This document shows, piece by piece, positions 781 to 58,671 of a stretch of DNA of 64,000 nucleotides (position 1 is the stretch's first letter; each line of letters starts with the position of its first letter). The notes beneath the pieces are model-generated. The model was not told where the DNA came from, did not search any database, and saw only the letters and a list, made by a program, of their open reading frames with translations. Source of the stretch: Myxococcota bacterium (GTDB lineage Bacteria; Myxococcota_A; Polyangia; Polyangiales; JANWZI01); contig JANWZI010000010.1 of the NCBI GenBank assembly GCA_025054695.1, positions 592 through 64,591 of the forward strand, read 5' to 3'. The translations under genes were made by a program, and so were the position numbers.

Positions 781-2265
781 ATGCGGCTCAAGATCATCGC
801 TGGCAATCTCGTCGCGCTGTTGCTCGTGGGCCTCGGCTCGTACTTCGTCGTGCGGGCGCAGCTTTCGAGTCGTCTCGAGGCGGACGTCGACGCCGAGATC
901 GCCAACGACGGGGTGTTGTTCGACCGATCGTGGCGGCTTTCGGGACGGGAGTTCCTCGAGCGCGTGGTCGCCCAGTCGATGACCCAGCAGGTGCGCGACG
1001 CGTTCGGGGGTCTGGACGACGATAGTCGGCGGCGCCGGGCCCATGAGGCCTCCAACGCCGTGGCCGAATGGTTTCGCAGCTCGGGTCAGGTGCGCGAGGG
1101 GGCGCCCGACGTCGTGCTGGTGACGGACGAGACGGGACGCGTGCTGGCGCGCAACCAGGATCCCAATCGAATGGTCGGTCATGCCCTGGGGGCCGAGCTG
1201 GGCGCGGTTCGCGACGTGCTCGCCGACGGCGTGCCGCGGCACGATGCGTGGGCGTACCGCGCGGAGGACAAGGTGCTCGAGGTCGGCATCGCCCCCATAC
1301 GCAATGCGCAGGGAGGGATCATCGGGGCACTCGTCGTGGCCTATGACCTGTCCAACGGGATCGCGCAGTCGGAGGGACGGCTCCTGGGTCGCGACGTCGC
1401 GTTCGTCACGGCGGACAAGGTCTACTCCGGGTCGATGTCACAGGACGTCAAGGCCGCCTTGCAGGCATTCCTGTTCGGTGAGAGGGCGGGACAGACGCGA
1501 GCCGTACTCGAGTCGGCTACGGTCGATCGTTGGGCGGCGCGACTGGGTGGCGCCGATTTCGTCGGAGTCACCGGAAGACTGCCTCTGTCCCCGAGCACGC
1601 CCGTGGGCTACGTCGTCCTCGCCAACAAGACGGCTGCGATGGATCTTGCGGGAAGCACGGCATCCATCCTTCTGTTTTTGATCGTCGGTGTCATCATCAC
1701 GGTCGCCTACGGCTTCTTCGTCGGGGGCGCGTGGGTTCGAGCGCTCGAGGAGATCGAGGAAGGTGTCCTTGCGGTGATCAACGGCAAGACCGAGACCCGT
1801 ATCGCCCTCGAGGGTGGCGAGCTGGGAGGCCTCGCGTATCGAATCAACCAGCTCATCAACGTGTTCACGGGCGTCTCGGAGTCGGACGAAGGAGGCGAGG
1901 GAGGCGGCACGGCATGGCGCGATGCCCCGTTCGCTGAGGGGGGAGCGGGCGGGGGTACGGCTCCCGCGGCGGTGGGGAGCAGCAGTGCGCCCTCGAGCGC
2001 AGAGCCCATCGACGACCCTGCCGTCGCGGCCAAGCTCGCCGCCGAGCCCGAAGACGCCTATTACGCGCGACTGTACCGCGAGTACGTCGCGGCCAAGCAG
2101 GCGGCAGGCGAGAACGTGGCTGGCATTCCCCAAGACCGCTTCGTTGCGCGCATACGCGGCAACGCCGAGGCGCTCGCCAAGAAGCACGGTGTGGCGGCGG
2201 TGCGTTTCCAGGTCGAGTCCGCGGGTGGCCAGGTGAGTCTGCGTCCGGTGCTGATCCGTCAGTAA
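781..2265 (+). CDS. Membrane sensor-like protein: N-terminal TM, periplasmic domain, second TM, HAMP-like segment and a C-terminal domain resembling the MXAN_5187-type domain
   Basis: Lies in ORF 646..2265. I chose ATG 781 (MRLKIIAGNLVALLLVGLGSYFVV), which has GAGGTGG upstream. A second TM reads ILLFLIVGVIITVAYGFFVGG. The C-terminus reads YYARLYREYVAAKQAAGE...VRFQVESAGGQVSLRPVLI. The domain name is from memory, not from a search. Confidence 0.6.
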   Translation: MRLKIIAGNLVALLLVGLGSYFVVRAQLSSRLEADVDAEIANDGVLFDRSWRLSGREFLERVVAQSMTQQVRDAFGGLDDDSRRRRAHEASNAVAEWFRSSGQVREGAPDVVLVTDETGRVLARNQDPNRMVGHALGAELGAVRDVLADGVPRHDAWAYRAEDKVLEVGIAPIRNAQGGIIGALVVAYDLSNGIAQSEGRLLGRDVAFVTADKVYSGSMSQDVKAALQAFLFGERAGQTRAVLESATVDRWAARLGGADFVGVTGRLPLSPSTPVGYVVLANKTAAMDLAGSTASILLFLIVGVIITVAYGFFVGGAWVRALEEIEEGVLAVINGKTETRIALEGGELGGLAYRINQLINVFTGVSESDEGGEGGGTAWRDAPFAEGGAGGGTAPAAVGSSSAPSSAEPIDDPAVAAKLAAEPEDAYYARLYREYVAAKQAAGENVAGIPQDRFVARIRGNAEALAKKHGVAAVRFQVESAGGQVSLRPVLIRQ

Positions 2266-2310
2266 TTCCCGCGACGGCGGTCGGGGGGAGCGATCAGGGC
2301 TCTGACGTCA

Positions 2311-2438
2311 GTCACAGCGGTTGACGTAACCAAGGGGCGTTGCGAGACCGAGACCGAGCTCGACTCCGAGACGGAGACCGAGACCGCGTTCGAGTACGAG
2401 CTGCAACCGCCGTCGATCAACCTGGCCCCCGCTGTGAC
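2311..2438. repeat. Hexamer-repeat element, copy 1: (GAGNCC)x10 core at 2344-2403 bracketed by an imperfect inverted repeat
   Basis: Units read gagacc gagacc gagctc gactcc gagacg gagacc gagacc... GTCACAGCGG (2311-2320) is the exact reverse complement of CCGCTGTGAC (2429-2438). The element is intergenic, between convergent genes. A degenerate tract in the opposite orientation continues at about 2490-2642. Confidence 0.85.
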
Positions 2439-2702
2439 CTCCGCGGTCGGATTGTTCGATGCAGGCTCCTGAACGCGATCGGTGTCGAATACCGTCTTGC
2501 TCTTCGGACTCGAACAACCCCTCGGCACTGGCAGCCGGAGCGCTCGGCACTGTGGCTTTGGCTCGGACGTCGGTGGGGGATCGGTGCCGCGACGGAGTCA
2601 CGCCCGACCGGCGCAACGGCCTTGGGCTCGAGCTCGGACGCCCCCCAAGGCGCGATCCTCAGGCGCCGTAGTACGCCCGGTCGAGTGCACCGAGGTCCGC
2701 CG

Positions 2703-3098
2703 TCAAGTGGCGACGAAGTCCTTCTCCTGTCGCTCCTGATCTTCTTTGCACCGGATGCAAAGCGTCGTTTCCGGGCGCGCCTCGAGCCGCTTGACGTGGA
2801 TATCTTCTCCGCAGGATTCGCAGATCCCGAAGGTTCCATCCTCGATCCGCTTGAGGGCCTTGTCGATCTTGGCGAGCAACCCCCGCTCGCGCCCACGCAG
2901 CCGAAACTCGAACGACTGGATGTACTCGCTCGACGCCAGGTCCATCTCGTCGGGAAGGTCGTTGGTGTCCAGCGTCATCGTTTCCTCGTTGAGCATCTCG
3001 CGCGCCCGTGCCAGCACTTCGGCTCGTCGCTCCTCGAGGATCTTCTTGAACCGCTTGAGGTCGGACTTCTTGATGGGCTCGCTCTTCTTGGTCGGCAT
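2703..3098 (-). CDS. dksA: DksA/TraR-family C4 zinc-finger transcription factor
   Basis: This is the 131-aa C-terminal part of ORF 2703..3818, starting at MPTKKSEP (ATG 3098). It has a coiled-coil region and CESCGEDIHVKRLEARPETTLCIRC. Confidence 0.85.
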   Translation of the reverse strand: MPTKKSEPIKKSDLKRFKKILEERRAEVLARAREMLNEETMTLDTNDLPDEMDLASSEYIQSFEFRLRGRERGLLAKIDKALKRIEDGTFGICESCGEDIHVKRLEARPETTLCIRCKEDQERQEKDFVAT

Positions 3099-3157
3099 CG
3101 AGGACTCCCGGAAACGACCAGCGGGAAGCCCAACAATGGAGGAGCGCGTCAACGTCG

Positions 3158-3952
3158 TCAAGAGCGTCGCGCACCCCGATGTGGCGCGCCGGGCGCCGCG
3201 TCGGAAGACGATTCGTTCCCGGCCGTCCGGTGCATCTCGGAGAGGAGTCGGAGGGCCGCGAGCGGGTCCAGGGGGAGCGTCCAGGGGCCGGATCGCGTGG
3301 GCGCTGCGAGCGCCTGGCCCAGGGCCTGCAAAAACCGGGGACGCGGCCATGGTTCCGCGCCGAATCGCGCCAGATGCTCGGTCGGGACCTGACAGTCGAC
3401 GAGGGAAAATCCCCAGTGCAGCAGATTGCCGACGAGCGTGACGAAAGCGACCTTGGAGGCGTCCGGCTCCAGGCTGAACATCGATTCCCCGAAAAAGACA
3501 CGGCCGAGGGACAGACCGTACAGGCCTCCGACGAGGCGGCCGCGTGACCACGCCTCGACGCTGTGCGCCAGACCGGCGCGGTGCAGCTCCAGGAACCCCA
3601 GACGCAACGATGTCGAGATCCACGTGCCCTGCTGCCCGGGACGTCGGACGGTCGCGCATCCGGCGATGACGCGATCGAACGCGGTGTCGGCACGCACCTC
3701 GAATCTCCCACGCCGAATGGTGCGCGCGAGCGAGCGGGAGACGTGCACGCGTTCGGGCACGAGCACGAATCGCGGGTCGGGCGAGAACCACAGCAGCTCC
3801 GCTCCCCGCGCGGGCCACGGAAAGATGCCGCTCGCGTACGCGAGGATCAGGCGCTCGGGCCTGAAATCTCCGCCGATGGCGACGAGGCCTTCCGGTCCGC
3901 CCGCGTCGGCGGGCGGGAAGCGCAGCTCCGGCCCGAGCCGGTAGACGGGCAC
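3158..3952 (-). CDS. aat: Leucyl/phenylalanyl-tRNA--protein transferase
   Basis: 264-aa ORF carrying GIFPWP, GGLYGLSLGRVFFGESMF and VDCQ motifs typical of Aat. It lies directly downstream of clpA. Confidence 0.85.
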   Translation of the reverse strand: MPVYRLGPELRFPPADAGGPEGLVAIGGDFRPERLILAYASGIFPWPARGAELLWFSPDPRFVLVPERVHVSRSLARTIRRGRFEVRADTAFDRVIAGCATVRRPGQQGTWISTSLRLGFLELHRAGLAHSVEAWSRGRLVGGLYGLSLGRVFFGESMFSLEPDASKVAFVTLVGNLLHWGFSLVDCQVPTEHLARFGAEPWPRPRFLQALGQALAAPTRSGPWTLPLDPLAALRLLSEMHRTAGNESSSDAAPGAPHRGARRS

Positions 3953-10336: not shown

Positions 10337-10390
10337 CGCGCCGCGATCTCCCCATCACGGTCGCGTTGGGTCAAGTGGCACGTCGGGGGC

Positions 10391-10534
10391 GGCCTCGGGC
10401 TCGGCATCGGAATCGACCTCGGCCTCGGACTGGGTCTCGGTCTCGGAATCGAACTCGGACTCTGATTCGGACTCGGCCTCGGACTCGGGCTCCGTCTCGG
10501 CGTTGGCCTCGGTCTTGTTTTCGGGCTCTCGGCC
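10391..10534. repeat. Hexamer-repeat array (complement orientation, CTCGGN units)
   Basis: Sequence reads ggcctc gggctc ggcatc ggaatc gacctc ggcctc ggactg ggtctc ggtctc ggaatc... It is intergenic, with a flank CTTGGTT (reverse complement AACCAAG) at 10542-10548. Confidence 0.85.
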
Positions 10535-10591
10535 TTGCGCTCTTGGTTCCTCAGACTTCGCCCTGCGAATTGCGCTCTGCGACGGCCTCGG

Positions 10592-11333: not shown

Positions 11334-12005
11334 GTGCGCCACGCATTGTTCGCCGGTTTGCTCCTCGCGACGGCCGTGCCGAACGTAGACGCGCAGCCCG
11401 AGGACGCGGAAACCCCGTGGTCGACGCGACGCTCGACGCAGGTCGATCCGTTCGAGCCCTTGGCGCCGCCGGAACCGGCGCGGATCGTCGTGCAGGTCGG
11501 GCTCGGCACCTCGTTGCGGCCCGTTCAGAACGTGGATTTCGAGTTCTCGCAGGGACTGTTCGCGCCGGGGTTCCTCGACGGGCACGTCGCGTACGTGCTG
11601 CCGACGGCGGCTGCATGGCGGCACGGATTCGGGGTCGACATCTCTGTGGGGTTGACGGGCGACGGCAACGTGCTGACCGGTGTCGACGGACTCGTCGAGA
11701 TTCTCACCGGGCAGGCGGTCCAGCCCCCCAACGGCCCACAGATGTCGATCGCGCCGACGTACCGTCTCTATCGGAGGCTCGAGGAGGACTGGGTCCTCGG
11801 CGCTAGAGCGGCCATGCCCGTGAACGTCACGCCGAATCTGTCGCCGGGACTTGAGCTGTCCGGGCAGGTCGCTCGAATGCTCACCGCGGGGCTCGGACCG
11901 TACGCGGAGTTGGGCGCCTCGGCGTGGCTGGGCTCGAGCGGGACGGTGCATCCCCTGCTCAGCGTGGAAGTCGGTCTGTTGCTCGATTACGAGGTGTTGC
12001 CGTGA
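11334..12005 (+). CDS. Secreted hypothetical protein (possibly an outer-membrane beta-barrel)
   Basis: GTG start with signal peptide MRHALFAGLLLATAVPNVDAQ. It is rich in alternating Gly and hydrophobic residues. Its stop overlaps the next start. Confidence 0.55.
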   Translation: MRHALFAGLLLATAVPNVDAQPEDAETPWSTRRSTQVDPFEPLAPPEPARIVVQVGLGTSLRPVQNVDFEFSQGLFAPGFLDGHVAYVLPTAAAWRHGFGVDISVGLTGDGNVLTGVDGLVEILTGQAVQPPNGPQMSIAPTYRLYRRLEEDWVLGARAAMPVNVTPNLSPGLELSGQVARMLTAGLGPYAELGASAWLGSSGTVHPLLSVEVGLLLDYEVLP

Positions 12006-19317: not shown

Positions 19318-19570
19318 GTTGGGCTCGGAGTCAGGCTCGGGCTCGGACTCGGACTCTGGCTCGGACTCTGGCTCGAACTCGGTCTCGGACTCGGTCCCGG
19401 ACTCGGACTCGGACTCGGTCTCGGACTCGGGCTCGGACTCGGGCTCGGAGTCGGGCACCGACTCGGCCTCGGTCTCGGCCTCGGCCTCGGACACAGACAC
19501 GGAGTCAGGCTCGGGCTCGGACTCTGGCGCGGACTCGGTCTCGGTCCGGGAGTCGGCCTGGGGCTCGGCC
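19318..19570. repeat. Hexamer-repeat array (complement orientation), about 40 units; the largest in the window
   Basis: Sequence reads gggctc ggagtc aggctc gggctc ggactc ggactc tggctc ggactc... It is intergenic between two plus-strand genes. The right flank contains GCGACCGTGTCCCGG. Confidence 0.9.
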
Positions 19571-22230: not shown

Positions 22231-22366
22231 CCGACACCGAGACCGAGCCCGAGTCCGAGCCTGAGTCCGAGTCCGAGTCCGAGTCCGAGCTGGAGCGCGA
22301 GCCCGAGCCTGAGGCCGAGTCCGAGACCGAGAGCGAGACAGAGACAGAGACGGTGACGGAGTCCGG
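22231..22366. repeat. Hexamer-repeat array (GAGNCC orientation)
   Basis: Sequence reads gacacc gagacc gagccc gagtcc gagcct gagtcc gagtcc gagtcc... It is intergenic and ends 5 nt before the stop of the 22371 gene. Confidence 0.85.
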
Positions 22367-29174: not shown

Positions 29175-29267
29175 CGAGCCCGAGCTCGAGTCCGAGCCTG
29201 AGTCCGCGCCGGAGTCGGAGTCCGAGCTCGAGTCCAAGTCGGAGCCGGATTCGGAGCGGAGTCCGAG
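29175..29267. repeat. Hexamer-repeat array (GAGNCC orientation)
   Basis: Sequence reads gagccc gagctc gagtcc gagcct gagtcc gcgccg gagtcg gagtcc gagctc gagtcc aagtcg... An upstream box TTGACGAGCCCATGGGACGCGTCGGCG lies at about 29124-29150. Confidence 0.8.
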
Positions 29268-29315
29268 TGCGTCACTCGGGGCGCGTGGTCTTGGAGGGCA
29301 CGCGTACGCGTGCCG

Positions 29316-32257: not shown

Positions 32258-32326
32258 TCGGGAGTCGGTCTCGGACCCGGCCTCGGACTTGGGCTCAGGT
32301 TCGGACACAGAACCGGGCTCGGGATC
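32258..32326. repeat. Hexamer-repeat array (complement orientation)
   Basis: Sequence reads tcggga gtcggt ctcgga cccggc ctcgga cttggg ctcagg ttcgga... It begins 11 nt after the hutH stop. The right flank contains GCGACCCATGTGATCCGCG. Confidence 0.75.
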
Positions 32327-33037: not shown

Positions 33038-33084
33038 TGCGGGTGTCTCGCCGCAACCGTGATCCGGTGCGATTCGCTCCAGGG

Positions 33085-33286
33085 CCCGAGACCGAGCCCG
33101 ACTCCGAGACCGAGACCGAGTTCGAGTCCGGGTCCGAGCCCGAGCCCGAGCCCGAGTCCGGGTCCGAGCCCGAGACCGAGACCGAGACCGAGTCCGAGTC
33201 GGAGTCCGGGACCGAGTCCGAGACCGAGTCCGGGTCCGAGACCGAGTCCGAGCCCGAGCCGGAGTCCGAGACCGAGACCGAGCTCG
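33085..33286. repeat. Hexamer-repeat array (GAGNCC orientation), about 33 units
   Basis: Sequence reads cccgag accgag cccgac tccgag accgag accgag ttcgag tccggg tccgag... It is intergenic. The left flank is GCAACCGTGATCCGGTGCGATTCGCTCCAGGGC. Confidence 0.9.
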
Positions 33287-34075: not shown

Positions 34076-34151
34076 CCGACGCGCACGCTAGCACGCGCGT
34101 CGCGACCCCGAACGGGTCGGATGGCGCCGGCCGAGTTGGTTGATCGCGCCT

Positions 34152-34184
34152 TCGACTCGGTCTCGGACTCGAGCTCGAGCTCGC
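34152..34184. repeat. Short hexamer-repeat tract in a divergent gap
   Basis: Sequence reads tcgact cggtct cggact cgagct cgagct cgc. Confidence 0.5.
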
Positions 34185-34300
34185 AGTACCCGTCGGCCAC
34201 GTCAAGCCACGTGACCGCCGCTGCGAGGGGTCATTGCACCTGAGCGAGAGGCGAGCTCGGGTGCGAGCGTTGACGATCCCTGGGACGTCGCACGACGATC

Positions 34301-35540: not shown

Positions 35541-38426
35541 TCAGCCCGGTCCGATCTCGGCGAGCGTGCGTTCGACCTGCTCGAGCTCCGGCAACCCGAG
35601 CGGGCGCAACAGCGCGCGCGCCTCGCGCAGCCGCTCGCGTGCCGTTTCCAGGTCTCCGCGCTCGACCAGATGGCGACCGAGCGCGATCAGCGACCGGGCG
35701 ACCTCCTTGTCGTTGCCGAGCTCGCGGAAGATGTCGATGGAGGCTAGGTAGCTGTCCTCGGCGCGGCGGTCGACGTCGCCGCTCGCATCGAACAGCGTCC
35801 GCGCGCGCAGGTCTCCGAGCGCACGATGGGCGAGCGCGATGGCCTCGCGCCCTCCGTACTGGGTCGCCAAGGCGAGCGCGTTGCGAAGCGTCGCTTCGCT
35901 GGCCTCGTCGCCCAGGCGCATCAGCACCAGGCCGAGGTTGCGCTCAACCTCGGTCGCGGCGCGCAGATCGCCCAGGCTCTCGGCGAGCCGCCGGGCCTCG
36001 AGCAGGCGTGCGCGTGCCTCCTCGAGGCGGCCGTCGCGCGCGAGCGCCTCGCCCACGTTGTTGTGCAGGAAGCACTGCGTACGTCCATCGCCCACCGATC
36101 GCGCTCCTTGCAGCGCCTGCTCCCAGCGCTCGATGGCCGCGGCGATGTCGCCGCGCTCGAAGGCGAAGATGCCGAGCGCGTTGAGGGACTCGACCGTTCC
36201 CTCGAGATCGCCGAGCTCGTGTCGAATGGCGAGCGCCTCGCCGCACAGTCGCTCGGCCTCGGGCAGCGCACCGCGCGCATAGCGCACCATCCCCAGCGTG
36301 TGCAGCGAGACGGCCTCGCCGCGGCGGTCGGCCTGTGCCCGGCGCAGGGCGAGGGCCTCGTTCGCCGCGTGCTCGGCCGCCTCCAGCTCGCCGCGCACAC
36401 GCAGTACCTGGGCCAGGTCGTCGAGCGTGGCCGCCACCCCCCGTGCGTCGGCGGCTCCGCGGAACAGCTCGAGGGCGCGCTCGAGCAGGACGCGTGCCCG
36501 CTCGTCCTGACCGCGCCGGCGGTGCACCCGCGCGATGCGGTTGAGCGCGGCCGCCGCCTTGCCGCGGGCGCCGAGCCGCCATGCCAGGCGCAACATGCGG
36601 TCGAACGAAGCGAGCGCCTCGTCGTAGCGACCCAGGGTGGTCAGCAACGAACCGTGCTCGTGCAGGGCGTCGAGACGGCGCGCGACGTCGTCCTCGGCGA
36701 GCAGACCGAGCGCTGCCGTCACGTACGCAAGCGCGGTCTCGGTTCGCAAGCGGGCGCGTTCCTCGTGCGCTGCCTCGAGGTAGGCGCGACCGGCGCGCTC
36801 GCGCAGCCCGGCGCGCTCCAGGTGCGGAGCGATGAGCGCCGCGACGCCCTGCCAGCCCGTCTCTGCCGCGACCGCGAGCCATCCGGCAACGGCGGCGTGG
36901 CGGGCGACGCGCAGCGCGGGGTCCATGCGGTCGTAGAGCAGATCGCGCACGCGGCTCGAGGCGAATGCGTACTGGCGCATCGCGGGAAGCTCGCAGGGCT
37001 CGTAGACGAGCACGAAACCCCGACGCACGAGCCGCCCGAGGACCGCGTCCAGCATGGCCACGTCGTCGTCCGTCCAGATCGCAGTCGGATCGGTCTCCGT
37101 GTCGGGTGGTGCACGCTCGGTGCGCATCTGGGCGAGCAGCGCGCCGTCCCAGAAGGTCTCGCCGACGACCGCGGCGCGTTCGAGCGTGGCGCGATCGAAC
37201 GGGTCGAGTCGCTCGAGCCGACTGAGCACCGCGTCGTCGGCCGTCACGGGCAAATCCCCGCGGTCCAGGCGCCCCAGGTCGACGCGAAGGCTCGCGTCGT
37301 CGCCCGCGACGAACAAGCCGGCTTCGACGAGCTCCTCGACGAGTTGCACGACGGCGGCCGGTCGACCCCCCGACCGGTGCGCGATCGCGGCGCCGAGGGC
37401 TTCGGGCACCGCGTCGAGGGCCGGAAGCAGGACGCGCACCATCGCGGCGACCTCGGCCTCGTCGAGCGGCGGCAGCGGAACGACGGACTGCATGCGATGG
37501 GGGGGGATCGGGCCCAGCCGCTCCGCGACGGAAGGTTCGCCGGTCACGACGATGGCCACGTGCGCCTCGATGCCGAGCAGCTCGCGCAGCATCTCGAGGG
37601 CGACCTCGCTCGCGCGGTGCAGATCGTCGAGCAGCACGAGCAGGGGACGGGCGCGCGCGTCGGCCTCGAACAGCTCCCGCAGCGCGCGGCGGGTGCGGCG
37701 GCGCAGTTCCTCGGGGCGTCCCGCGAGCGAGGTCAGAAACGGGCTGTCCGGGAACGGAACGCCCGCGAGATGCCCGAGCAGGTGCGTGGCTTCGGCCACC
37801 GCGGCTGCCTCCGAGGTGCCCAGTGCTTCGGCCACGGCCGTGGCCATCTGCGCGCGCACCGAGGCCGGGCTGCGCGTGGGGACGATGTCGAAGCGATCGA
37901 GCAGAAGTCGGGAGAACGGCGCGTGCTCGTCGTCGCCCTCGCGACACGCGCCGTACAGCACCCGCGTGGAGGGATCGAGCGCGGCCGCGACCTCGCTGGC
38001 ATGCACGAGCAGTCGCGTCCGCCCCGAGCCGCGTTCTCCGATGACGAGCACGACGGCGGGGCGACCGACCGAGAATGCCGCCTCGATGGCCGACGAGATG
38101 GCGGATGCGGCCTCGACGCGCCCGACCAGGGGCGGCTCGGCTCGATCCGCGGCGCCGAAGGAGCTTGGCGCGGCGTCCGAAGACGCCGGCTCCGCCTCGA
38201 TCGAGGGCGGCGGGGCATGCTCGTCGGTCATCTCCGGAGCGCCGGTGACCTCCGTGCGCTCCTCGGGCTCCGACGTCGGGGGCGAACCGGACGGGAGCCC
38301 GAGCGACCACGATCGGCTCCACGGCGTGGCGCTGCCGAGCGGCCGGCCACATCGGGCGCAGCCCCGCCACGCGCGCGGGTTGACGAACCCGCAGGCGCGA
38401 CATCGACCGTCCGCAGACCCCGTCAC
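35541..38426 (-). CDS. STAND-like ATPase (AAA_16-type P-loop) with an N-terminal zinc ribbon and a C-terminal TPR array
   Basis: 961 aa. The N-terminus has CRACGFVNPRAWRGCARCG, the Walker A is VIGERGSGRTRLL, and the C-terminal half has more than 8 TPR-like repeats (LGDLRAATEVERNLGLV...). Confidence 0.75.
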   Translation of the reverse strand: MTGSADGRCRACGFVNPRAWRGCARCGRPLGSATPWSRSWSLGLPSGSPPTSEPEERTEVTGAPEMTDEHAPPPSIEAEPASSDAAPSSFGAADRAEPPLVGRVEAASAISSAIEAAFSVGRPAVVLVIGERGSGRTRLLVHASEVAAALDPSTRVLYGACREGDDEHAPFSRLLLDRFDIVPTRSPASVRAQMATAVAEALGTSEAAAVAEATHLLGHLAGVPFPDSPFLTSLAGRPEELRRRTRRALRELFEADARARPLLVLLDDLHRASEVALEMLRELLGIEAHVAIVVTGEPSVAERLGPIPPHRMQSVVPLPPLDEAEVAAMVRVLLPALDAVPEALGAAIAHRSGGRPAAVVQLVEELVEAGLFVAGDDASLRVDLGRLDRGDLPVTADDAVLSRLERLDPFDRATLERAAVVGETFWDGALLAQMRTERAPPDTETDPTAIWTDDDVAMLDAVLGRLVRRGFVLVYEPCELPAMRQYAFASSRVRDLLYDRMDPALRVARHAAVAGWLAVAAETGWQGVAALIAPHLERAGLRERAGRAYLEAAHEERARLRTETALAYVTAALGLLAEDDVARRLDALHEHGSLLTTLGRYDEALASFDRMLRLAWRLGARGKAAAALNRIARVHRRRGQDERARVLLERALELFRGAADARGVAATLDDLAQVLRVRGELEAAEHAANEALALRRAQADRRGEAVSLHTLGMVRYARGALPEAERLCGEALAIRHELGDLEGTVESLNALGIFAFERGDIAAAIERWEQALQGARSVGDGRTQCFLHNNVGEALARDGRLEEARARLLEARRLAESLGDLRAATEVERNLGLVLMRLGDEASEATLRNALALATQYGGREAIALAHRALGDLRARTLFDASGDVDRRAEDSYLASIDIFRELGNDKEVARSLIALGRHLVERGDLETARERLREARALLRPLGLPELEQVERTLAEIGPG

Positions 38427-38516
38427 GGGGGCGATTTACGCACGAGGTCGTGCGCGCGACAACGGCGGTGTTTCCCGTGCGCGCGCAGGCTATTCTCACG
38501 CGACGGAGGCGAGACG

Positions 38517-40991
38517 ATGCGGGGTCGGACGCACGGCTGGGCGTGGATCGTCGCGGTTGCCGTCGGCGCCGGCGGTTGCGAGGCGTGCAAGGACTTCTTC
38601 GACGCCGGCGACGACGGCGACGACGACTCTCCTCGAAACCTCGGCGTCGGGGACGCATGCCGGCGCGCCAGCGAATGCCGCGTCGGGCTCGGCTGCATCG
38701 GGGGCACGTGTCAGCCCCAGGGGCTCGGCGTCGAGGGCTCGACGTGTCAGCTCACGGGCGACTGCGGGGCGGGGCTGTACTGCGCGCGCTCGCGAACGTG
38801 CGAGCGCGCCGGCGACGCGATGGCCGGGGACGACTGCCGTGCGACGGCGGACTGCGCTCCGGGACTCGTCTGCACGCTCGAGGGGCTCGGCGGGCGGTGC
38901 AGACCCGCCGGCAGCGCCGACATCGACGAGCCGTGCACGCGCCTGCTCGATTGCCTGGCCGGCCTCGAATGCAGGCCGGGTCGGGACGGACGCCCGGGTC
39001 ACTGCATCAATCCCGCGCCGGTGGCCTCCGGGGACGGCGGGTCCGGAGGGCTCGTTCCGGGGCTTCCGTTCTGGCCCGGGGAGCGGTGCACGGACGAAGG
39101 CGCACCGGCGCGCGCGTTGTTCGAGGTACCGCGCTTCGACGGCAGCGACGGCGACTTCTACCGGTTGCCATTCCCGAACGACATCCGGCGCAGACCCGAC
39201 GGACTCGACCTGCGCGGGCATCCGTCGCCCGCGACCGTGCTCGAGGTCGACATCATCGACCGGTATCTACGCGCTTCCGAGCGCGACCTGCGCGGCTTCT
39301 CGCTCAATCCCACGATTTACTTCCGCTTCAGCGAGCCGTACGACTGGGCGAGCGTCGAGGGGCAGCTTCGCATCGTCGACGTGACGCCGGGCTCGCCCGA
39401 TTACGGGCGGACGATGGCGCTGGCGTGGCTGACGACCGCCGGGCCCATCACGCGTTATCTGTGCGAGGACTGGCTCGCGTTGCGCGTCCCCCACGGCGCT
39501 CCGTTGCGCCCCGCGACCACGTACGCGGCCATCGTCGGCTCCGGCGTGCGCCCCGCGCCGTCGGTCGGCGGGCGCTTCGCGCGCTCGCCCGACCTCGACG
39601 CCGTGCTCGGGTCGACCGCTCCGTCCGACCCGGTGCTCGCGGCGGCCCACGCCGCGTATGCGCCGCTGCGCGCCTGGCTCGCCGATTCGGGTACCGATCC
39701 CGGCGAGGTGCTCAACGCGGCCGTCTTCACGACGCAGCCGCTCGGCGCGCTCGTGCCCGCGTTGCGCGAGGTCATCCGTGGCCGGCCGGCTCCGGCCGTC
39801 GGCGAGGCCGTGCTGTGCGACGGCAGCCGCCGCTCGCCGTGCGACGACGGGACGCCGCAGCGCGCGTGCGGCACGCCCGTCTCCGGGATCCGCGAGATCC
39901 ATGGGCGGATCGAGCTACCCATCTTTCAGCATGGTCGCGCGCCGTACGAGGAGCCCGACGACGGCGGCGGGCTCCAGCTCGACGCGAGTGGCCGACCCGT
40001 GGTCGCTCGGACCGAGGCCGTTTGCTTCGGGCTCGCGTTGCCCGACGGTCCGACGCCTGCCGGCGGATGGCCCCTGCTGATCCACGCGCACGGCACCGGC
40101 GGCAGCTTCCGCGACGGTTTGTCGTGGTCCGCCGACCTGAACGCCGCGGTGCTGGGCATCGATTTGCCGCAGCACGGAGCGCGACGCGGGGGCAGCCGTC
40201 GCTCGCCGGACGTGCTGTTCTTCAACTTCGTCAATCCGCCGGCCGCGCGCGACAACGTGACCCAGGGGGCGGCCGACCTGCTCGCGCTCGTCCACTTCGC
40301 CGTCTCCGGCCGGATCGAGGCCAGCGCGAGCCCGACCGGGGAGGCCATCGCGTTCGACCGGAGTCGCATCGTGCTGTTCGCGCATTCGCAGGGCGCGACG
40401 CACGCGGCGCTGATCGTGCCGCACGAGCCCGACTTGCGCGCGGTCGTGTTCAGCGGCCTGGGCGGCGACCTGACGCAGTCGCTGCTGCACAAGCGCGAGC
40501 CGGTGGACATCGCCGCGCTGCTGCCGTTCGCGCTGCTGGACCCGGATGCGTCCGGAGCGCTCGCGGCCGGGGACTTCCATCCCGCGCTCGCGCTGTTCCA
40601 GGGCTACTTCGACGCGGTCGACGCGGTCAATCACGCCGCCGCGCTCGTGCACCGCAGACCGATGGCCGGCGGCGCGCCGCACGTGTTCATGACGTACGGC
40701 CTCGGCGACAGCTTCTCGCCCGAGCCGACCATGCAGGCGTACGCGCTGGCGGCGGGACTGACGGCCGTGCGCCCGGTGCACGTCGAGTTCGGTCTGCGCG
40801 CCGCCGACCCGCCGCTCCGGGGCAACGAAATGGCGGCGAGCGGACCGCGCACCGTCGGGCTTCGGCAGTACCGGCCCGAATCGGGGGCCGACGGGCACTT
40901 CGTCGCGACGAGCGGACCGGGACGCGCCGACGTGGAGGCCTTCTTGCGCGCGGCGCTCGCGGGCGACGTCCCGTCGATCGGCACGCCATGA
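38517..40991 (+). CDS. Secreted lipoprotein: N-terminal Cys-rich repeats plus an alpha/beta-hydrolase domain
   Basis: Lies in ORF 35826..40991. I chose ATG 38517 after GGAGG (MRGRTHGWAWIVAVAVGAGGC). Repeated C-x-C modules include GDACRRASECRVGLGCIGGTC, GSTCQLTGDCGAGLYC and GDDCRATADCAPGLVC. Hydrolase motifs are LIHAHGTGGS and FAHSQGA. Confidence 0.7.
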   Translation: MRGRTHGWAWIVAVAVGAGGCEACKDFFDAGDDGDDDSPRNLGVGDACRRASECRVGLGCIGGTCQPQGLGVEGSTCQLTGDCGAGLYCARSRTCERAGDAMAGDDCRATADCAPGLVCTLEGLGGRCRPAGSADIDEPCTRLLDCLAGLECRPGRDGRPGHCINPAPVASGDGGSGGLVPGLPFWPGERCTDEGAPARALFEVPRFDGSDGDFYRLPFPNDIRRRPDGLDLRGHPSPATVLEVDIIDRYLRASERDLRGFSLNPTIYFRFSEPYDWASVEGQLRIVDVTPGSPDYGRTMALAWLTTAGPITRYLCEDWLALRVPHGAPLRPATTYAAIVGSGVRPAPSVGGRFARSPDLDAVLGSTAPSDPVLAAAHAAYAPLRAWLADSGTDPGEVLNAAVFTTQPLGALVPALREVIRGRPAPAVGEAVLCDGSRRSPCDDGTPQRACGTPVSGIREIHGRIELPIFQHGRAPYEEPDDGGGLQLDASGRPVVARTEAVCFGLALPDGPTPAGGWPLLIHAHGTGGSFRDGLSWSADLNAAVLGIDLPQHGARRGGSRRSPDVLFFNFVNPPAARDNVTQGAADLLALVHFAVSGRIEASASPTGEAIAFDRSRIVLFAHSQGATHAALIVPHEPDLRAVVFSGLGGDLTQSLLHKREPVDIAALLPFALLDPDASGALAAGDFHPALALFQGYFDAVDAVNHAAALVHRRPMAGGAPHVFMTYGLGDSFSPEPTMQAYALAAGLTAVRPVHVEFGLRAADPPLRGNEMAASGPRTVGLRQYRPESGADGHFVATSGPGRADVEAFLRAALAGDVPSIGTP

Positions 40992-43921: not shown

Positions 43922-44554
43922 ATGGGGGCCGTCGCGTCGCGCGCGCGACGGCGCACCACCGTTAAGCTTGGGGCTCCGGTGACGTCGCCGTACCGTTCCG
44001 AGCTGCTCGCGCTGGCGCGGCGCGCCGTGCGGGCCGCCGCCGAGAACGCGCCCGCGCCGCGCGCGGACCCGAGTCGGCTCGAGGCCTGGATGCGCGAGCC
44101 CGGATGTTGCTTCGTGACCCTTCGCACGCTTGACGGCCGACTGCGCGGCTGCATCGGAAGGCTCGAGCCGGATCTGCCGCTGCACGAATGCGTCGTACAG
44201 TCCGCGATCGCGGCTGCGTCGCGCGATCCGCGCTTCGAGCCGGTGCGACCCGACGAGGTGGACGCCCTGCGGATCGAGATCCACGTGCTCGGCCCAACGC
44301 GGCGCGTGCACGGGCCGTCCGAGGTCGAGGTGGGTCGGCACGGCGTGGTCCTTCGGGCGGCTGGACGACGCGGGGTGCTGCTTCCCTCGGTCGCGGTCGA
44401 GCACGGACTGGACGCGACCCGCTTCGTCGAGGCCGTCTGTCACAAAGCGGGCTTGCCGGTGGATGCGTGGCGCCGTTCCGACGCGGTTCTCGAGGTGTTC
44501 GAGACCCTTTCGTTCGCGGAGCCGGAGTGCGGCGCTGTGGATGCCGGCGGGTGA
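43922..44554 (+). CDS. AMMECR1-domain protein
   Basis: ATG 43922 (the track uses TTG 43916). Contains CCFVTLRTLDGRLRGCIGRLEP. Confidence 0.75.
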   Translation: MGAVASRARRRTTVKLGAPVTSPYRSELLALARRAVRAAAENAPAPRADPSRLEAWMREPGCCFVTLRTLDGRLRGCIGRLEPDLPLHECVVQSAIAAASRDPRFEPVRPDEVDALRIEIHVLGPTRRVHGPSEVEVGRHGVVLRAAGRRGVLLPSVAVEHGLDATRFVEAVCHKAGLPVDAWRRSDAVLEVFETLSFAEPECGAVDAGG

Positions 44555-45108: not shown

Positions 45109-45264
45109 GAGCCAGAGCCCGAGTCCGAGCCCGAGCTCGAGCCCGAGCCCGAGTCCGAGTCCGAGCTCGAGCCCGAGTCCGAGCTCGAGTCCGAGCTCGA
45201 GCCCGAGCCCGAGTCCAAGTCCGAGACCGAGACCGAGTCCGAGTCCGAGTCTGAGTCCGAGTCC
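45109..45264. repeat. Hexamer-repeat array (GAGNCC orientation), 26 units, in the rplS/uppP divergent gap
   Basis: Sequence reads gagcca gagccc gagtcc gagccc gagctc gagccc gagccc gagtcc gagtcc gagctc... The left flank is GTGACCAAGGG (45078-45088), and the right flank contains GTGATCGATGC. Confidence 0.92.
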
Positions 45265-45376
45265 GTGATCGATGCTTTCGCCCCACGGCGCCCGCGGTCG
45301 TGATCGAGATTCACGGGAGCCACCTGCCAGACAACCGCGTGCTTGATTCGTGTGGGGAGCGGGATAGAAGGCGCAC

Positions 45377-47433: not shown

Positions 47434-49023
47434 ATGCGTCGCTTCGCTTGGTGTGCGGCCGCCGCGGCACCGTTCGTCTCGACTTCGTGCGTCGACCCGA
47501 ATCCCGTGGGACGCCTCGAGGCACCCGCGGTCTATGGAGAGGACGACAGGCGGGACGTGTTCGAGCACGACGACGCGTCGCTGCGTGCGCGTACGGACGG
47601 CTCCATCGTCGCGCTGATGCAAGCCGAGGCGTTGATGCCGGACGGCGACGGAAGCTACGTGCCCCTGGCTCCCACGCTCGGCGAGGCGCAGCGACTGTGT
47701 GCGGGACAGCGATTCGCCGAGCAGCCGACCGCCGCATTCTGCTCGGGCACGCTGATCGACGACGATCTGGTGCTGACCGCCGGTCACTGCGTCGAGGCGT
47801 CGGGCGACTGTTCGGACGTCCGGCTCGTGTTCGACTATTACTTCGTCGCCCCGGGGCGGCTCGCGCGCATCGAGCGTGAAGACGTATTTGCCTGCCGCCG
47901 CATCGTGACGCGGCGACTCGAGGAGAGCGGACTCGACTACGCCGTCATGCAGCTCGACCGGCCGGCGACGCCGAGCGGACGCAGCGTCGCTCCGGTACGC
48001 CTCGAGGACCGGCCGCTTGAACGGGACCGGCGCGTCGTGGTCATCGGGTTCGGAAGCGGGCTGCCGGCGAAGATCGACGACGGCGGTCGCGTCGTCGACC
48101 CGCGCGCGAGCCGTCTCGACTACTTCCATGCGACGACCGACACGTTCGGCGGCAACAGCGGCTCGGGCGTATTCGACGAGGAGGGAAGGATCGTCGGCAT
48201 CCTGGTGCGGGGGGAAACCGACTACGTACCCGCGGGCTCGTGCTACGTGGTCAACGAGCTGCCCGACTCGGGCACGGGGGGCGCAGAGGACGTCGTATAC
48301 GTGCGGCGCGCCATCGACGCGCTGTGCCGCGAGGGCTGGCCGAGCGAACGGCTCTGCGGGCGCGGGTCCTCGTGCGGTGACGGAATCTGCAGCGGCATGG
48401 AAACCCCGGAGGACTGTCCAGACGACTGCGCGGCCGCGGCCTGTCCGGATGGCCTGTGTCAGCTCACCGAGGACGAGTCGAGCTGTCCCGCCGATTGCGC
48501 GGGCGGCGCGAGCTCGGGGCCGCCGTCCGGCTGGACCTGCCCGGCCGGGTGGTATGACGCGCGGGAGGGCTGCGACTGCGGTTGCGGGGTGCGCGATCCG
48601 GATTGCGACGTGCCGGGACAGCGCGTGTACGGTTGCACCGAGGGGCAGAGCTGTGACGCGTCGGGGCGCTGCACCGACGCGCCGGCAGGCGGCGGCGTCT
48701 GGCTCTGTTCCCCCGAGTACTACGGAACGTCGGACGGATGCGACTGCGAGTGCGGCACACGCGATCCCGACTGCGACGATCCCTCGCAACCGGTGCTCAA
48801 CTGTCCCGATGGCTATCTGTGCGGCGGGCCGTCCGGCACGTGCGTCGACGAGTCCGGAATGCCGCCCGGCGCGAGTGGCGGCGACGCGACGTGCGCCGTG
48901 ATGGGTACGGCGGGCCCGGCGATGACCGTCGTGCTCGCGGCCTGGATCGCGATGGCGCGGCGTCGTCGAGCCCGGCGCCGCGGCACGCCGCGGACCGCGC
49001 ATGGCAGGCCCGGAGCGAACTGA
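47434..49023 (+). CDS. Secreted trypsin-like serine protease with duplicated Cys-rich modules and a MYXO-CTERM-like tail
   Basis: Lies in ORF 47311..49023, starting at ATG 47434. Contains LTAGHC and FGGNSGSGVF. Two modules read W.C...Y....GCDC.CG.RDPDCD. The tail is CAVMGTAGPAMTVVLAAWIAMARRRRARRR. Confidence 0.75.
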   Translation: MRRFAWCAAAAAPFVSTSCVDPNPVGRLEAPAVYGEDDRRDVFEHDDASLRARTDGSIVALMQAEALMPDGDGSYVPLAPTLGEAQRLCAGQRFAEQPTAAFCSGTLIDDDLVLTAGHCVEASGDCSDVRLVFDYYFVAPGRLARIEREDVFACRRIVTRRLEESGLDYAVMQLDRPATPSGRSVAPVRLEDRPLERDRRVVVIGFGSGLPAKIDDGGRVVDPRASRLDYFHATTDTFGGNSGSGVFDEEGRIVGILVRGETDYVPAGSCYVVNELPDSGTGGAEDVVYVRRAIDALCREGWPSERLCGRGSSCGDGICSGMETPEDCPDDCAAAACPDGLCQLTEDESSCPADCAGGASSGPPSGWTCPAGWYDAREGCDCGCGVRDPDCDVPGQRVYGCTEGQSCDASGRCTDAPAGGGVWLCSPEYYGTSDGCDCECGTRDPDCDDPSQPVLNCPDGYLCGGPSGTCVDESGMPPGASGGDATCAVMGTAGPAMTVVLAAWIAMARRRRARRRGTPRTAHGRPGAN

Positions 49024-49033
49024 CGGCCCTCGC

Positions 49034-49158
49034 GTTGCTTGACGTGGCCGACGGGTGTCGCGAGCCCGAGTCCGAGGCAGAGTTCGCGCCCAAGTCCGAG
49101 CCCGAGCCCGCGTCCGAGTGGGCGCCCCGGTCAACCACCTTCCCACGCGCCGTGACAC
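49034..49158. repeat. Hexamer-repeat element: flank box, (GAGNCC)x10 core at 49062-49121, and an inverted right arm
   Basis: The left flank is GTTGCTTGACGTGGCCGACGGGTGTCGCGAG. On the right are GTCAACC (49130-49136) and CGTGAC (49151-49156). The element starts 11 nt after the protease stop. Confidence 0.8.
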
Positions 49159-49285
49159 GCGCCGGTGCCGCCGCAAGCGCCCCGAGCGCCGACGACGGGG
49201 TCTCGGGCAGGCGTTCGGGCTCGTGACGTCCCGGTCGCCGGGTCGGAGCGAAGCGGGGTCGACCCAGGCGTCCGATGCCGGGAAG

Positions 49286-52228: not shown

Positions 52229-52321
52229 TCGGACTTGCACTCGCGATCGGCCTCGGTCTCGGGTCTCGGCCTCGGTCTCGGGCACGGTCTCGGGACCAGG
52301 CCCGGAGTCCGGCTCGGCTCC
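52229..52321. repeat. Hexamer-repeat array (complement orientation)
   Basis: Sequence reads tcggac ttgcac tcgcga tcggcc tcggtc tcgggt ctcggc ctcggt ctcggg cacggt ctcggg... It is intergenic. Confidence 0.75.
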
Positions 52322-57521: not shown

Positions 57522-58193
57522 TTAACGCGGTGCAGGCGCTCCGCACGAAGGACACGTGGTGTCGTAGATCGCCATCGACTTGCCGCAGAACCGGCAGGCG
57601 ACGGTGCCCGGCGCGGATCCTGCCCGGAGCGGTGTGAGGGTTCGGGCCGACCGATCGCTCGAAGGAGCGAGGATCCACACGCGCGCGTCGTGGAGATCGT
57701 CGTCGCGCGCGGAGCCGATCGTGCGAAGCGCCACGGCGATCGCATCGGCGACGGACGCGGCCGCCGTCGCGAACAGCGCTCGTCGCGCACGCACGGCGAA
57801 GCCGACGAGCAGCGCGCGCGGGTCGTCGACCGGCGCCACAAGGGGCTCGGGCTCGGTGCCGATCCAGCCATGCGTCGCCTCGGGCAGCGCGCGCAGCAGT
57901 TCCAGGGCCGCGTCGCGCGCCGATCCGCGGTGTCCCATCCGGCCCGCCAGGGCCTGCACGCTCGCGCGCACGCCCGGTGCGTGATCCGGACCGAACGCGA
58001 GCACGACCGTGACGGTCGTGCTCGATGCAGGCGTGATCGCCCCGACGGGGCGCTCGCCGTCAGTCGCGTTTTCGGCTCGACGTTCGCGGCCGCGACGCAG
58101 CAGGCCGAGTACCGCGAATGCGCCGAGCAACACAAGGACCAACGCGACGCACGCGCAGGCGAGGACGACGGCGCTGCCGCCGTGGGCCTCCAT
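57522..58193 (-). CDS. Hypothetical membrane protein with a C-terminal zinc ribbon
   Basis: 223 aa with an N-terminal TM (VVLACACVALVLVLLGAFAVLGLL). The C-terminus reads CRFCGKSMAIYDTTCPSCG. Confidence 0.5.
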   Translation of the reverse strand: MEAHGGSAVVLACACVALVLVLLGAFAVLGLLRRGRERRAENATDGERPVGAITPASSTTVTVVLAFGPDHAPGVRASVQALAGRMGHRGSARDAALELLRALPEATHGWIGTEPEPLVAPVDDPRALLVGFAVRARRALFATAAASVADAIAVALRTIGSARDDDLHDARVWILAPSSDRSARTLTPLRAGSAPGTVACRFCGKSMAIYDTTCPSCGAPAPR

Positions 58194-58333
58194 GGACGTG
58201 GCTGCTTACCTCGAAGTCCACGTCACGGTCCACGGTTCGGTGGGGGTTGCAGGCGCGGCGGGGCACGCGCTCGTGCATGAAGCGATGATGCGTCTCGCAC
58301 GGGGCGAACGCGGTCTCAGCGTTGCCCTGGGTT

Positions 58334-58552
58334 TCGGAGTGTGTCTCGGGCTCGGACTCGGACTCGGGCTCGGACTCGGTCTCGGACATGGACACGGACA
58401 CGGACTCAGACACGGTCTCGGACTCGGAATCGGACTCGGTCTCGGTCTCGGGCTCGGGCTCGGGCTCGGACTCGGTCTCGCGCTCCGACTCCGGCTCCGA
58501 CTCGGGCTCGGGCTCGGTCTCCGACTCGGACTCGGTCTCGGGCTCGGACTCG
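58334..58552. repeat. Hexamer-repeat array (complement orientation), about 36 units; the full element is about 58320-58626
   Basis: Sequence reads ctcggg ctcgga ctcgga ctcggg ctcgga ctcggt ctcgga... The right flank is CTCGCAACTCTCCTCGGCTACGGCAAGCAAC (58549-58579). CCCTGGGTTTCGG (58325-58337) is repeated as CCCTGGccagGTTTCGG (58610-58626). Confidence 0.92.
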
Positions 58553-58671
58553 CAACTCTCCTCGGCTACGGCAAGCAACGTGACAGCCGCGATCAGAGTC
58601 GGGTCCGAACCCTGGCCAGGTTTCGGGCTCACGGATCCGAGCGCCAGAACGGCAGGACGGCCTCGACGCGC

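Follow-up and report, generated by a model that had tools for sequence, protein, structure and literature searches.

The hexamer array at positions 2303-2438 and its surroundings

The window analyzed here is a 64-kb stretch of contig JANWZI010000010.1, chromosomal DNA of an uncultured Myxococcota bacterium with 71% G+C, and our subject is a short tandem array with its flanks at positions 2303-2438. The array, hereafter a1, lies on the plus strand (2344-2403) and consists of ten hexamer units of the form GAG-N-CC, the last three of which are degenerate. It is preceded by a conserved 5' head (2307-2343, plus strand), which holds GTCAC and TTGACGT (at 2321), and followed by a 3' tail (2404-2438, plus strand) with a TCAACC box at 2417-2422. 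The upstream gene (781-2265, plus strand) encodes a hypothetical protein (MCS6797583.1) with a weak PAS match, and its TAA stop is located 79 nt before the array. The convergent gene downstream (2703-3098, minus strand) belongs to the DksA/TraR family (Pfam DksA_N and zf-dskA_traR). Because a terminator-like hairpin (2480-2494) followed by a T-rich run, identified as a consensus match alone, is found 3' of the array (2480-2504, plus strand), a1 likely lies in the 3' untranslated region (UTR) of the gene ending at 2265.

An initial annotation had described this locus as a unit of roughly 125-300 nt, in which imperfect terminal inverted repeats enclose a hexamer core of variable length, and had likened it to miniature inverted-repeat transposable elements (MITEs) and repetitive extragenic palindromic (REP) sequences. 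The nine strings that it quoted, including a 10-nt inverted repeat, were all recovered exactly at their positions, and the ten-unit core at 2344-2403 is real. As detailed below, its structural claim is largely refuted, and the repeat family beneath that claim is real and unusually dense.

Inventory, unit and genomic position of the GAG-N-CC arrays

A search of the window for four consecutive GAGNCC units with at most two mismatches gave 140 matches, compared with 0.01 expected. These matches form 12 tandem arrays (a1 to a12) of 5 to 41 units each. Five further arrays were found outside the window, for a total of 17 in the approximately 83 kb of genome covered (the window plus about 9-10 kb on either side of it in the contig). 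The resulting density of about 2.2 (2.18) arrays per 10 kb is approximately 30-fold higher than in 137 kb from the nearest available relatives (0.07). Tandem Repeats Finder reported a period of 6 nt, together with its multiples 12, 18, and 30, and approximately 0% indels, so that the unit phase is strictly kept within arrays that are otherwise imperfect (67-87% matches). Across 226 units, the profile was G (96%), A (91%), G (93%), N, C (90%), and C (84%), with T (42%), C (30%), A (21%), or G (7%) at the free position 4. The entropy was 0.3-0.9 bits at the five other positions and 1.78 bits at position 4, with position 6 being the second most variable.

According to a gene model based on G+C content at third codon positions (GC3), every array is intergenic, and the deposited gene calls concur. 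None of the 17 arrays lies within an annotated gene, and the accessions of the coding sequences (CDS) run consecutively across arrays a3, a5, a7, and a8. Of the window's 27 gaps of at least 100 nt, 12 (44%) hold an array, and the arrays account for 15% of the intergenic DNA and 2.2% of the window. Six window arrays lie on each strand and convergent, tandem, and divergent gaps are all occupied; no orientation bias was detected for these 12 arrays relative to the neighboring genes or to the GC skew, which rises steadily. Since the units adjoin directly, the arrays differ from clustered regularly interspaced short palindromic repeats (CRISPR), in which repeats of 23-50 nt alternate with unique spacers. 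An Rfam scan of the window gave no match at the gathering threshold; at E-values of up to 1, only a chance match to a long non-coding RNA was obtained around a1 and none around a10. A known RNA family was therefore rejected.

Four arrays share a head in fixed register

A 37-nt 5' head is common to a1, a8, a10, and a12. The four heads (GTCAGTCACAGCGGTTGACGTAACCAAGGGGCGTTGC for a1, 2307-2343, plus strand; GGCGGTCACGTGGCTTGACGTGGCCGACGGGTACTGC for a8, 34183-34219, minus strand; GGCCCTCGCGTTGCTTGACGTGGCCGACGGGTGTCGC for a10, 49025-49061, plus strand; GGCTGTCACGTTGCTTGCCGTAGCCGAGGAGAGTTGC for a12, 58552-58588, minus strand) were aligned without gaps on the first GAG of each array (first units at 2344, 34182, 49062, and 58551). 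They stand in exact register, with TTGACGT, or its variant TTGCCGT in a12, beginning 23 nt before this GAG. Their pairwise ungapped identity is 23-30 of 37 positions, and those of a8 and a10 have an exact 20-mer in common. When each head was left out in turn and searched for with nhmmer in 833 kb, the omitted head was the best non-training match in every case, with E-values of 7e-4 to 7e-3 for a8, a10, and a12 and of 1.1 for a1. A pattern distilled from the four heads matched the window at these four sites only (0.00 expected), a count that is circular as a measure of significance and that shows specificity.

The element around a8 (34138-34219, minus strand) comprises the head, a 5-unit array (34153-34182), and a TCAACC box (34138-34143). 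Around a10 (49025-49136, plus strand), the head is followed by a 10-unit array (49062-49121) and a TCAACC box (49131-49136), and the extended head overlaps the TGA stop (49021-49023) of a gene for a trypsin-like peptidase. The element of a12 (58342-58588, minus strand) carries 35 units (58342-58551). In three of the four head-bearing copies (a1, a8, and a10), the TCAACC box lies 12-17 nt 3' of the array; for comparison, array b2 carries CGACCAACC. The box is the sole shared part of the tail, for which a model failed the same leave-one-out nhmmer search. In a1 and a10, the last array units are also alike (GCGTTCGAGTAC vs GCGTCCGAGTGG). Arrays a1, a8, a10, and a12 are copies of one dispersed head-array-tail element, and therefore the stretch at 2303-2438 resembles that at 49034-49158, a resemblance that, judged from the aligned heads, is true homology. 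Hence, the initial annotation was right that the same layout recurs at 49034-49158, and its statement that the unit is not a bare microsatellite holds for the a1 copy, with at least four copies of the element now recognized. The head is lacking in 13 of the 17 arrays, and it was not found in the arrays of other organisms (120 metagenome loci among the matches listed).

Alternatively, each array could be an independent microsatellite that grew in place from a chance proto-repeat, the likeness of the flanks being a coincidence or reflecting promoter-like words such as TTGAC. The 13 arrays without the head would agree with such separate origins, as would the enrichment of k-mers in the array flanks, which was marginal after multiple-test correction, the unrelated flanks of arrays in other lineages, and the generally higher frequency of TTGAC near arrays and in intergenic DNA. 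Nevertheless, we regard this explanation as unlikely, given that a8 and a10 share their 20-mer in identical register beside two unlinked arrays. The leave-one-out E-values of a8, a10, and a12, the confinement of the head pattern to four sites in the window, and the similar last units of a1 and a10 speak against it as well, as does an in-phase TG[CT] codon at the start boundary of arrays (p below 1e-5), which is discussed further below.

Candidate regulatory sites in the head were rejected. A scan found no -10 element for a sigma-70 promoter at TTGACG, and matches to a sigma-54 promoter or a direct-repeat operator, seen by eye only, were not conserved across copies. Separately, a perfect 10-nt palindrome, CTGACGTCAG (CRE-like TGACGTCA), adjoins the a1 head at 2302-2311, and TGACGT words occur nearby at 2322, 49040, 49224, and 49300.

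The other arrays and their gene neighborhood

The remaining window arrays vary widely in length. Array a2 (10391-10516, minus strand; intergenic by the gene calls) has 21 units and a3 (19321-19566, minus strand) has 41, and the 20 units of a4 (22233-22352, plus strand) separate a MerR-family gene from a gene for a CehA/McbA-family metallohydrolase. Approximately 15 units, one of them of 5 nt, make up a5 (29176-29268, plus strand), whose flanks carry a 9-nt inverted repeat (ACGTTGACG/CGTCAACGT). Six clear units were counted in a6 (32261-32296, minus strand), with degenerate units continuing to about 32320. The 34 units of a7 (33082-33285, plus strand) end 29 nt from the stop codon of a glucose 1-dehydrogenase gene, and the 26 units of a9 (45109-45264, plus strand) occupy the divergent gap between rplS and uppP. 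Finally, a11 (52247-52293, minus strand) has approximately 7 units, one of them of 7 nt. A short-read Logan contig (L015 1-144, from SRR15826901; window 45233-45376) stops inside a9, which is consistent with arrays breaking short-read assemblies.

Beyond the two assemblies of the organism itself, the nearest homologues of the window's genes were 45-57% identical and came from Sandaracinaceae and from metagenome-assembled genomes of Polyangia. At 35541-40991, two very long open reading frames (ORFs) overlap on opposite strands: the GC3 model picks a single plus-strand ORF of 1721 aa, and the deposited annotation has a minus-strand AAA/TPR gene of 961 aa and a plus-strand gene of 824 aa.

Inverted repeats and folding

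The sequence GTCACAGCGG (2311-2320), which lies within the head of a1, and its exact reverse complement CCGCTGTGAC (2429-2438), at the end of the tail, form a 10-nt inverted repeat whose arms are separated by 108 nt. Another perfect inverted repeat of 10 nt, unrelated to this one, is present within the same 395-nt gap. As a control, we recorded the exact inverted repeat between 60-nt flanks at window positions of the same geometry. Inverted repeats of at least 10 nt were found at 1.6% of the control positions, which corresponds to p ~0.01-0.016 for the a1 locus taken alone and to a probability of 0.18 that at least one of 12 arrays has such a repeat by chance. Among the 17 arrays of this genome, a1 is the only one with a flank inverted repeat of this length. 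When these 17 arrays were combined with 23 intergenic arrays on other contigs (among the matches listed), flank inverted repeats were not longer than in the controls (means of 6.24 vs 6.42 nt; Mann-Whitney p = 0.87).

Within the family, complementarity between head and tail amounts to only about 4-6 nt (TTGA/TCAA plus one or two bases). Head GTCAC and tail GTGAC occur together in the a1 copy alone, and the outer arms of a1 are not conserved in a8, a10, or a12. What the copies share in their flanks is direct homology in the same orientation. The 10-nt inverted repeat of a1 is private to this copy; it overlaps the GTCAC head motif of the family and is otherwise coincidental. When RNAalifold was applied to the four elements with the arrays trimmed, neither a head-tail helix nor covariation emerged (-9.8 kcal/mol, covariation term of +0.19). 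RNA folds were not better than those of shuffled sequences (z = -1.3 and -1.7 at 2303-2438 and +1.0 at 49034-49158), and among single-stranded DNA (ssDNA) folds the plus strand of 2303-2438 was the sole outlier (z = -2.65, compared with +1.4 for 49020-49160 and -1.4 for 34105-34235). On the basis of these folds and of RNAalifold, the long imperfect hairpin that had been proposed for ssDNA or RNA was rejected. By eye, no target-site duplication was evident at the approximate, fuzzy boundaries of a1 and a10. The gene calls of the approximately 83 kb read contain no transposase, and no gene for a REP-associated tyrosine transposase (RAYT, IS200/IS605-like) was seen in them.

A MITE- or REP-like mobile element with an array core, imperfect terminal inverted repeats, and a long hairpin is therefore distinctly unlikely. 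Several observations would suit it: the 10-nt inverted repeat and the ssDNA fold of a1 are real, a5 has its own 9-nt flank repeat, and the TTGAC of the head faces GTCAA/TCAACC in the tail of a1, a8, and a10. Moreover, as in MITEs, the four copies are dispersed and short, with conserved ends and without coding capacity. Against these stand the lack of flank inverted-repeat enrichment, the probability of 0.18 just given, the unconserved outer arms, the absence of a conserved or covarying helix, and the ordinary folding of the other copies, besides the lack of a visible target-site duplication and of a transposase in the approximately 83 kb read. MITEs are defined by terminal inverted repeats common to their copies, and REP sequences and bacterial interspersed mosaic elements (BIMEs) by an imperfect palindromic unit of 20-40 nt that forms a stem-loop. 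Membership in either group fails because such inverted termini or palindromes are not a trait of the family.

Coding potential of the GAG-NCC frame

The unit is codon-shaped, GAG encoding Glu and NCC encoding Ser, Pro, Thr, or Ala. We therefore considered that the arrays are translated into acidic E-S/P/T/A repeats, either in small proteins or at the N-termini of lipoproteins (signal peptide, Cys, and linker), whose genes were missed by annotation. The variability of position 6 would agree with this, and the heads, read in this frame, resemble the last residues of a lipoprotein signal peptide (...LLDVADGC, then ESEP...), with an in-phase Cys codon before 8 of the 17 arrays. On other contigs, arrays inside genes encode ordinary EP/ES linkers and favor the sense strand by 21 to 1 (among the matches listed). 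However, in a1, a8, a9, a4, and b1, the stretch from the last in-frame stop to the array contains no start codon (ATG, GTG, or TTG), such that a signal peptide cannot fit. The frame of the TCAACC box differs between a1 and a10, the variable head columns fall mostly on the first codon position (9 columns, compared with 4 at the second and 5 at the third), and the ORFs are short, the frame closing within 12-35 codons of most arrays. Furthermore, the downstream genes have N-termini and signal peptides of their own, and in a8 and a10 the opposite-strand frame is closed by a stop that precedes the array by three codons. Taken together, we consider translation of the arrays highly improbable.

Three related coding possibilities were also rejected. 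Translation of the opposite strand as GGN-CTC (Gly-Leu) had the appeal of placing position 4 and the majority of the variable head columns at wobble positions, and was dismissed on account of the stop just mentioned and of the junk sequence beyond the head. The arrays are not lost N-termini of the downstream genes, which possess their own. Continuation of the GAG-NCC frame directly past the stop of the upstream gene, without a further stop, was observed for three of the four arrays oriented like that gene (2266-2472, 10355-10591, and 58060-58671), probably by coincidence (p ~0.11, not significant).

Similar arrays in a second Myxococcota lineage

Scanning metagenome contigs for five perfect units returned at least 120 contigs. 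Arrays of other lineages have flanks unrelated to those described here, and intergenic arrays were located in high-GC contigs (among the matches listed). One such high-GC contig represents another Myxococcota lineage (homologue names include Myxococcales and Kofleriaceae), in which one gene has arrays on both sides. Relatives with 77 and 73% protein identity carry no array in the orthologous gaps, which measure 82-117 nt and 11 nt. Two strains of one species in this second lineage (L139 and L140) are 99.26% identical overall, and one of their arrays, with 23 vs 24 units, differs in approximately 14 of 23 units. This array (11578-11727) fills the whole gap between two convergent stop codons, without any spacer, and is the most divergent stretch between the two strains. 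The second lineage thus displays behavior like that of a variable number tandem repeat (VNTR), with empty sites in its relatives.

Other repeats were noticed on these contigs. At a site where the second lineage has a hexamer array, the relative L142 (11588-11820) has a different tandem repeat, made of four copies of a 30-nt unit (CAGCCACGCGCCGCCGCCGCGGTCCAGGAT), over which a 61-aa ORF was called. On L068 (Ga0068876_10001114, 78.7% GC), two arrays of 35 and 23 units in opposite orientation abut head to head at 2902-3249, so that the space between two genes is taken up by a palindrome-like block of approximately 350 nt; the end of the contig bears a third array.

These comparisons bear on whether the arrays act as a functional platform. 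A protein or RNA-binding factor might read the constant CCGAG/CTCGG pentamer every 6 bp, by analogy with ribbon-helix-helix partition proteins on arrays of 6-7 bp repeats, or the transcript might serve factors such as Rho as an unstructured RNA landing pad in which YC dinucleotides are regularly spaced. In either case, selection would hold five positions and leave position 4 free. The entropy profile, the strict phase, the occupation of 44% of the larger gaps, and the conserved head in fixed register are compatible with such a role, and the second lineage has the same unit shape. Nonetheless, a platform seems rather unlikely to us. An RNA role is disfavored by the absence of any orientation bias with respect to transcription, array length varies from 5 to 41 units, and orthologous sites in relatives of the second lineage lack arrays, whose composition turns over fast between its strains. 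No candidate binding protein was identified, and an ancient polymorphism at position 4 in one founder could yield the same profile without selection.

Comparison with known repeat families

The arrays resemble the short tandemly repeated repetitive (STRR) sequences of cyanobacteria, which are usually 7-bp repeats with a function that is still not known (PMC2670836), in that a single lineage has amplified very short units in tandem at numerous intergenic positions. They differ in having a 6-nt unit with one free position rather than a fixed heptamer, in belonging to the Myxococcota rather than to the heterocystous cyanobacteria, in the conserved non-repeat head and tail of a subset, and in showing no hairpin-forming tendency.

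With simple sequence repeat (SSR) and VNTR loci, such as contingency loci and the markers used in multiple-locus VNTR analysis (MLVA), they have in common the head-to-tail units, the intergenic position, and, as shown in the second lineage, the gain or loss of whole units. Mycobacterial interspersed repetitive units (MIRUs) are dispersed at many intergenic loci of operons; their units of 46-101 bp carry small overlapping ORFs. Unlike typical SSR and VNTR loci, the arrays of this genome are imperfect, have a frame-neutral unit, are not tied to phase-variable surface genes, and reach an extreme density, at 15% of intergenic DNA. A contingency locus was rejected on similar grounds, as the arrays are imperfect, the 6-nt unit keeps the reading frame, and all gap types are used.

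Like MITEs, REP/BIME, enterobacterial repetitive intergenic consensus (ERIC), and Correia elements, they are small, non-coding, and intergenic, with dispersed copies that share a conserved end in the four head-bearing cases. In contrast to them, the family has no inverted repeats or palindromic unit of its own, no target-site duplication, transposase, or RAYT was seen, and the core is a tandem array of variable length.

Borg genomes, too, contain tandem repeats in intergenic DNA and ORFs, which are rapidly evolving, recent, and nearly absent from relatives, and the genic ones encode disordered repeats (bioRxiv 10.1101/2022.05.18.492195). Both cases involve pervasive tandem repeats in one genome type. 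Whereas Borg repeats are perfect and A-rich with their own unit at each locus, a single GC-rich hexamer is present here at every locus, imperfect and never in a gene, and the host is a bacterial chromosome. Lastly, the acidic EP/ES linker repeats inside genes of metagenome contigs have an identical DNA unit (GAGCCC/GAGTCC etc.), but 0 of the 17 arrays here lie in an annotated gene, both strands are used, and the Glu frame has no start codons. Searches of the literature on the hexamer, on myxobacterial hexanucleotide repeats, and on tandem repeats of Sandaracinus found no description of such arrays, which is not proof of absence; the arrays appear to be undescribed.

Origin and dynamics of the arrays

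We observed directly that the arrays exist, that their unit has the profile given above, that they lie strictly between genes, and that their density is high. On balance, we lean toward the view that 2303-2438 belongs, as one copy, to a family of non-coding GAG-N-CC arrays that was amplified between the genes of this lineage and that behaves like a VNTR or minisatellite. In this genome, the arrays would grow, shrink, and reshuffle by whole units through slipped-strand mispairing or unequal recombination, as we infer from the dynamics seen in the second lineage. They would be tolerated only between genes and have no orientation-dependent function. The head-array-tail element would have spread by copying rather than by independent origin at each site, presumably without a dedicated function.

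Several points weigh against this view of a freely varying, functionless family. No variation was seen in this genome, as two assemblies of the organism are 99.9% identical and the arrays covered by both (a1, a2, and a9 to a12) agree in unit number and sequence. Five unit positions conserved at 84-96% next to a nearly free position 4 need either constraint or a special founder. In 8 of the 17 arrays, an in-phase TG[CT] precedes the first unit by 0-2 codons, compared with a background of 5-7% (p ~1e-5 to 7e-7), which points to a boundary constraint or to a common origin. All four head-bearing copies point in the same direction as an adjacent gene, another sign of constraint. Finally, the data are limited by the absence of a close relative from the collections searched, in which the best UppP homologue was 57% identical.

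At the start boundary of arrays, a GCGT(T)GC word recurs. Its being out of phase in b5 argues for a feature at the DNA level rather than at the codon level. The constant unit positions and the TG[CT] boundary fit either a single founder copied around the genome, perhaps derived from a coding fragment with a Cys and an acidic linker, or a present-day constraint on CCGAG, two options that 83 kb of sequence does not separate. The five constant positions, the strict phase, the TG[CT] start, and the head in fixed register would also fit arrays that are not inert and that belong to a dedicated system, with either a factor reading CCGAG every 6 bp or a head-directed mechanism that adds or copies hexamers. 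We attach little probability to such a system and retain the VNTR-like family as the preferred explanation.

The comparison with the sister assembly revealed a separate pattern. All 23 mismatches to the window over 20.8 kb fall in four tight clusters (54212, 54218, 54224, and 54230; 35853-35871; 36705-36768; and 43957-43962), none of them in a hexamer array, and one cluster with exact 6-nt spacing lies inside an FG-GAP repeat gene. Such clustering resembles the outcome of gene conversion between internal repeats, or of a mixture of strains, more than it does scattered single-nucleotide polymorphisms.

Implications

For the structure first proposed for 2303-2438, the main value of our analysis is negative, as the inverted repeat is not the organizing principle of the element. 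In practical terms, assemblies from short reads break at such arrays, gene callers are prone to call false ORFs there, and the arrays would be good strain markers. If a factor reading CCGAG does exist, approximately 15% of the intergenic DNA would be a structured platform, and if units are added or copied under the direction of the head, this would be a new way of building bacterial intergenic DNA. Bacterial chromosomes are normally poor in microsatellites. Should the density observed here hold genome-wide, this lineage would offer a natural system for studying the origin and spread of short tandem repeats in compact genomes, and for asking whether arrays affect 3' and 5' UTRs and whether head-array-tail elements can disperse without inverted termini.

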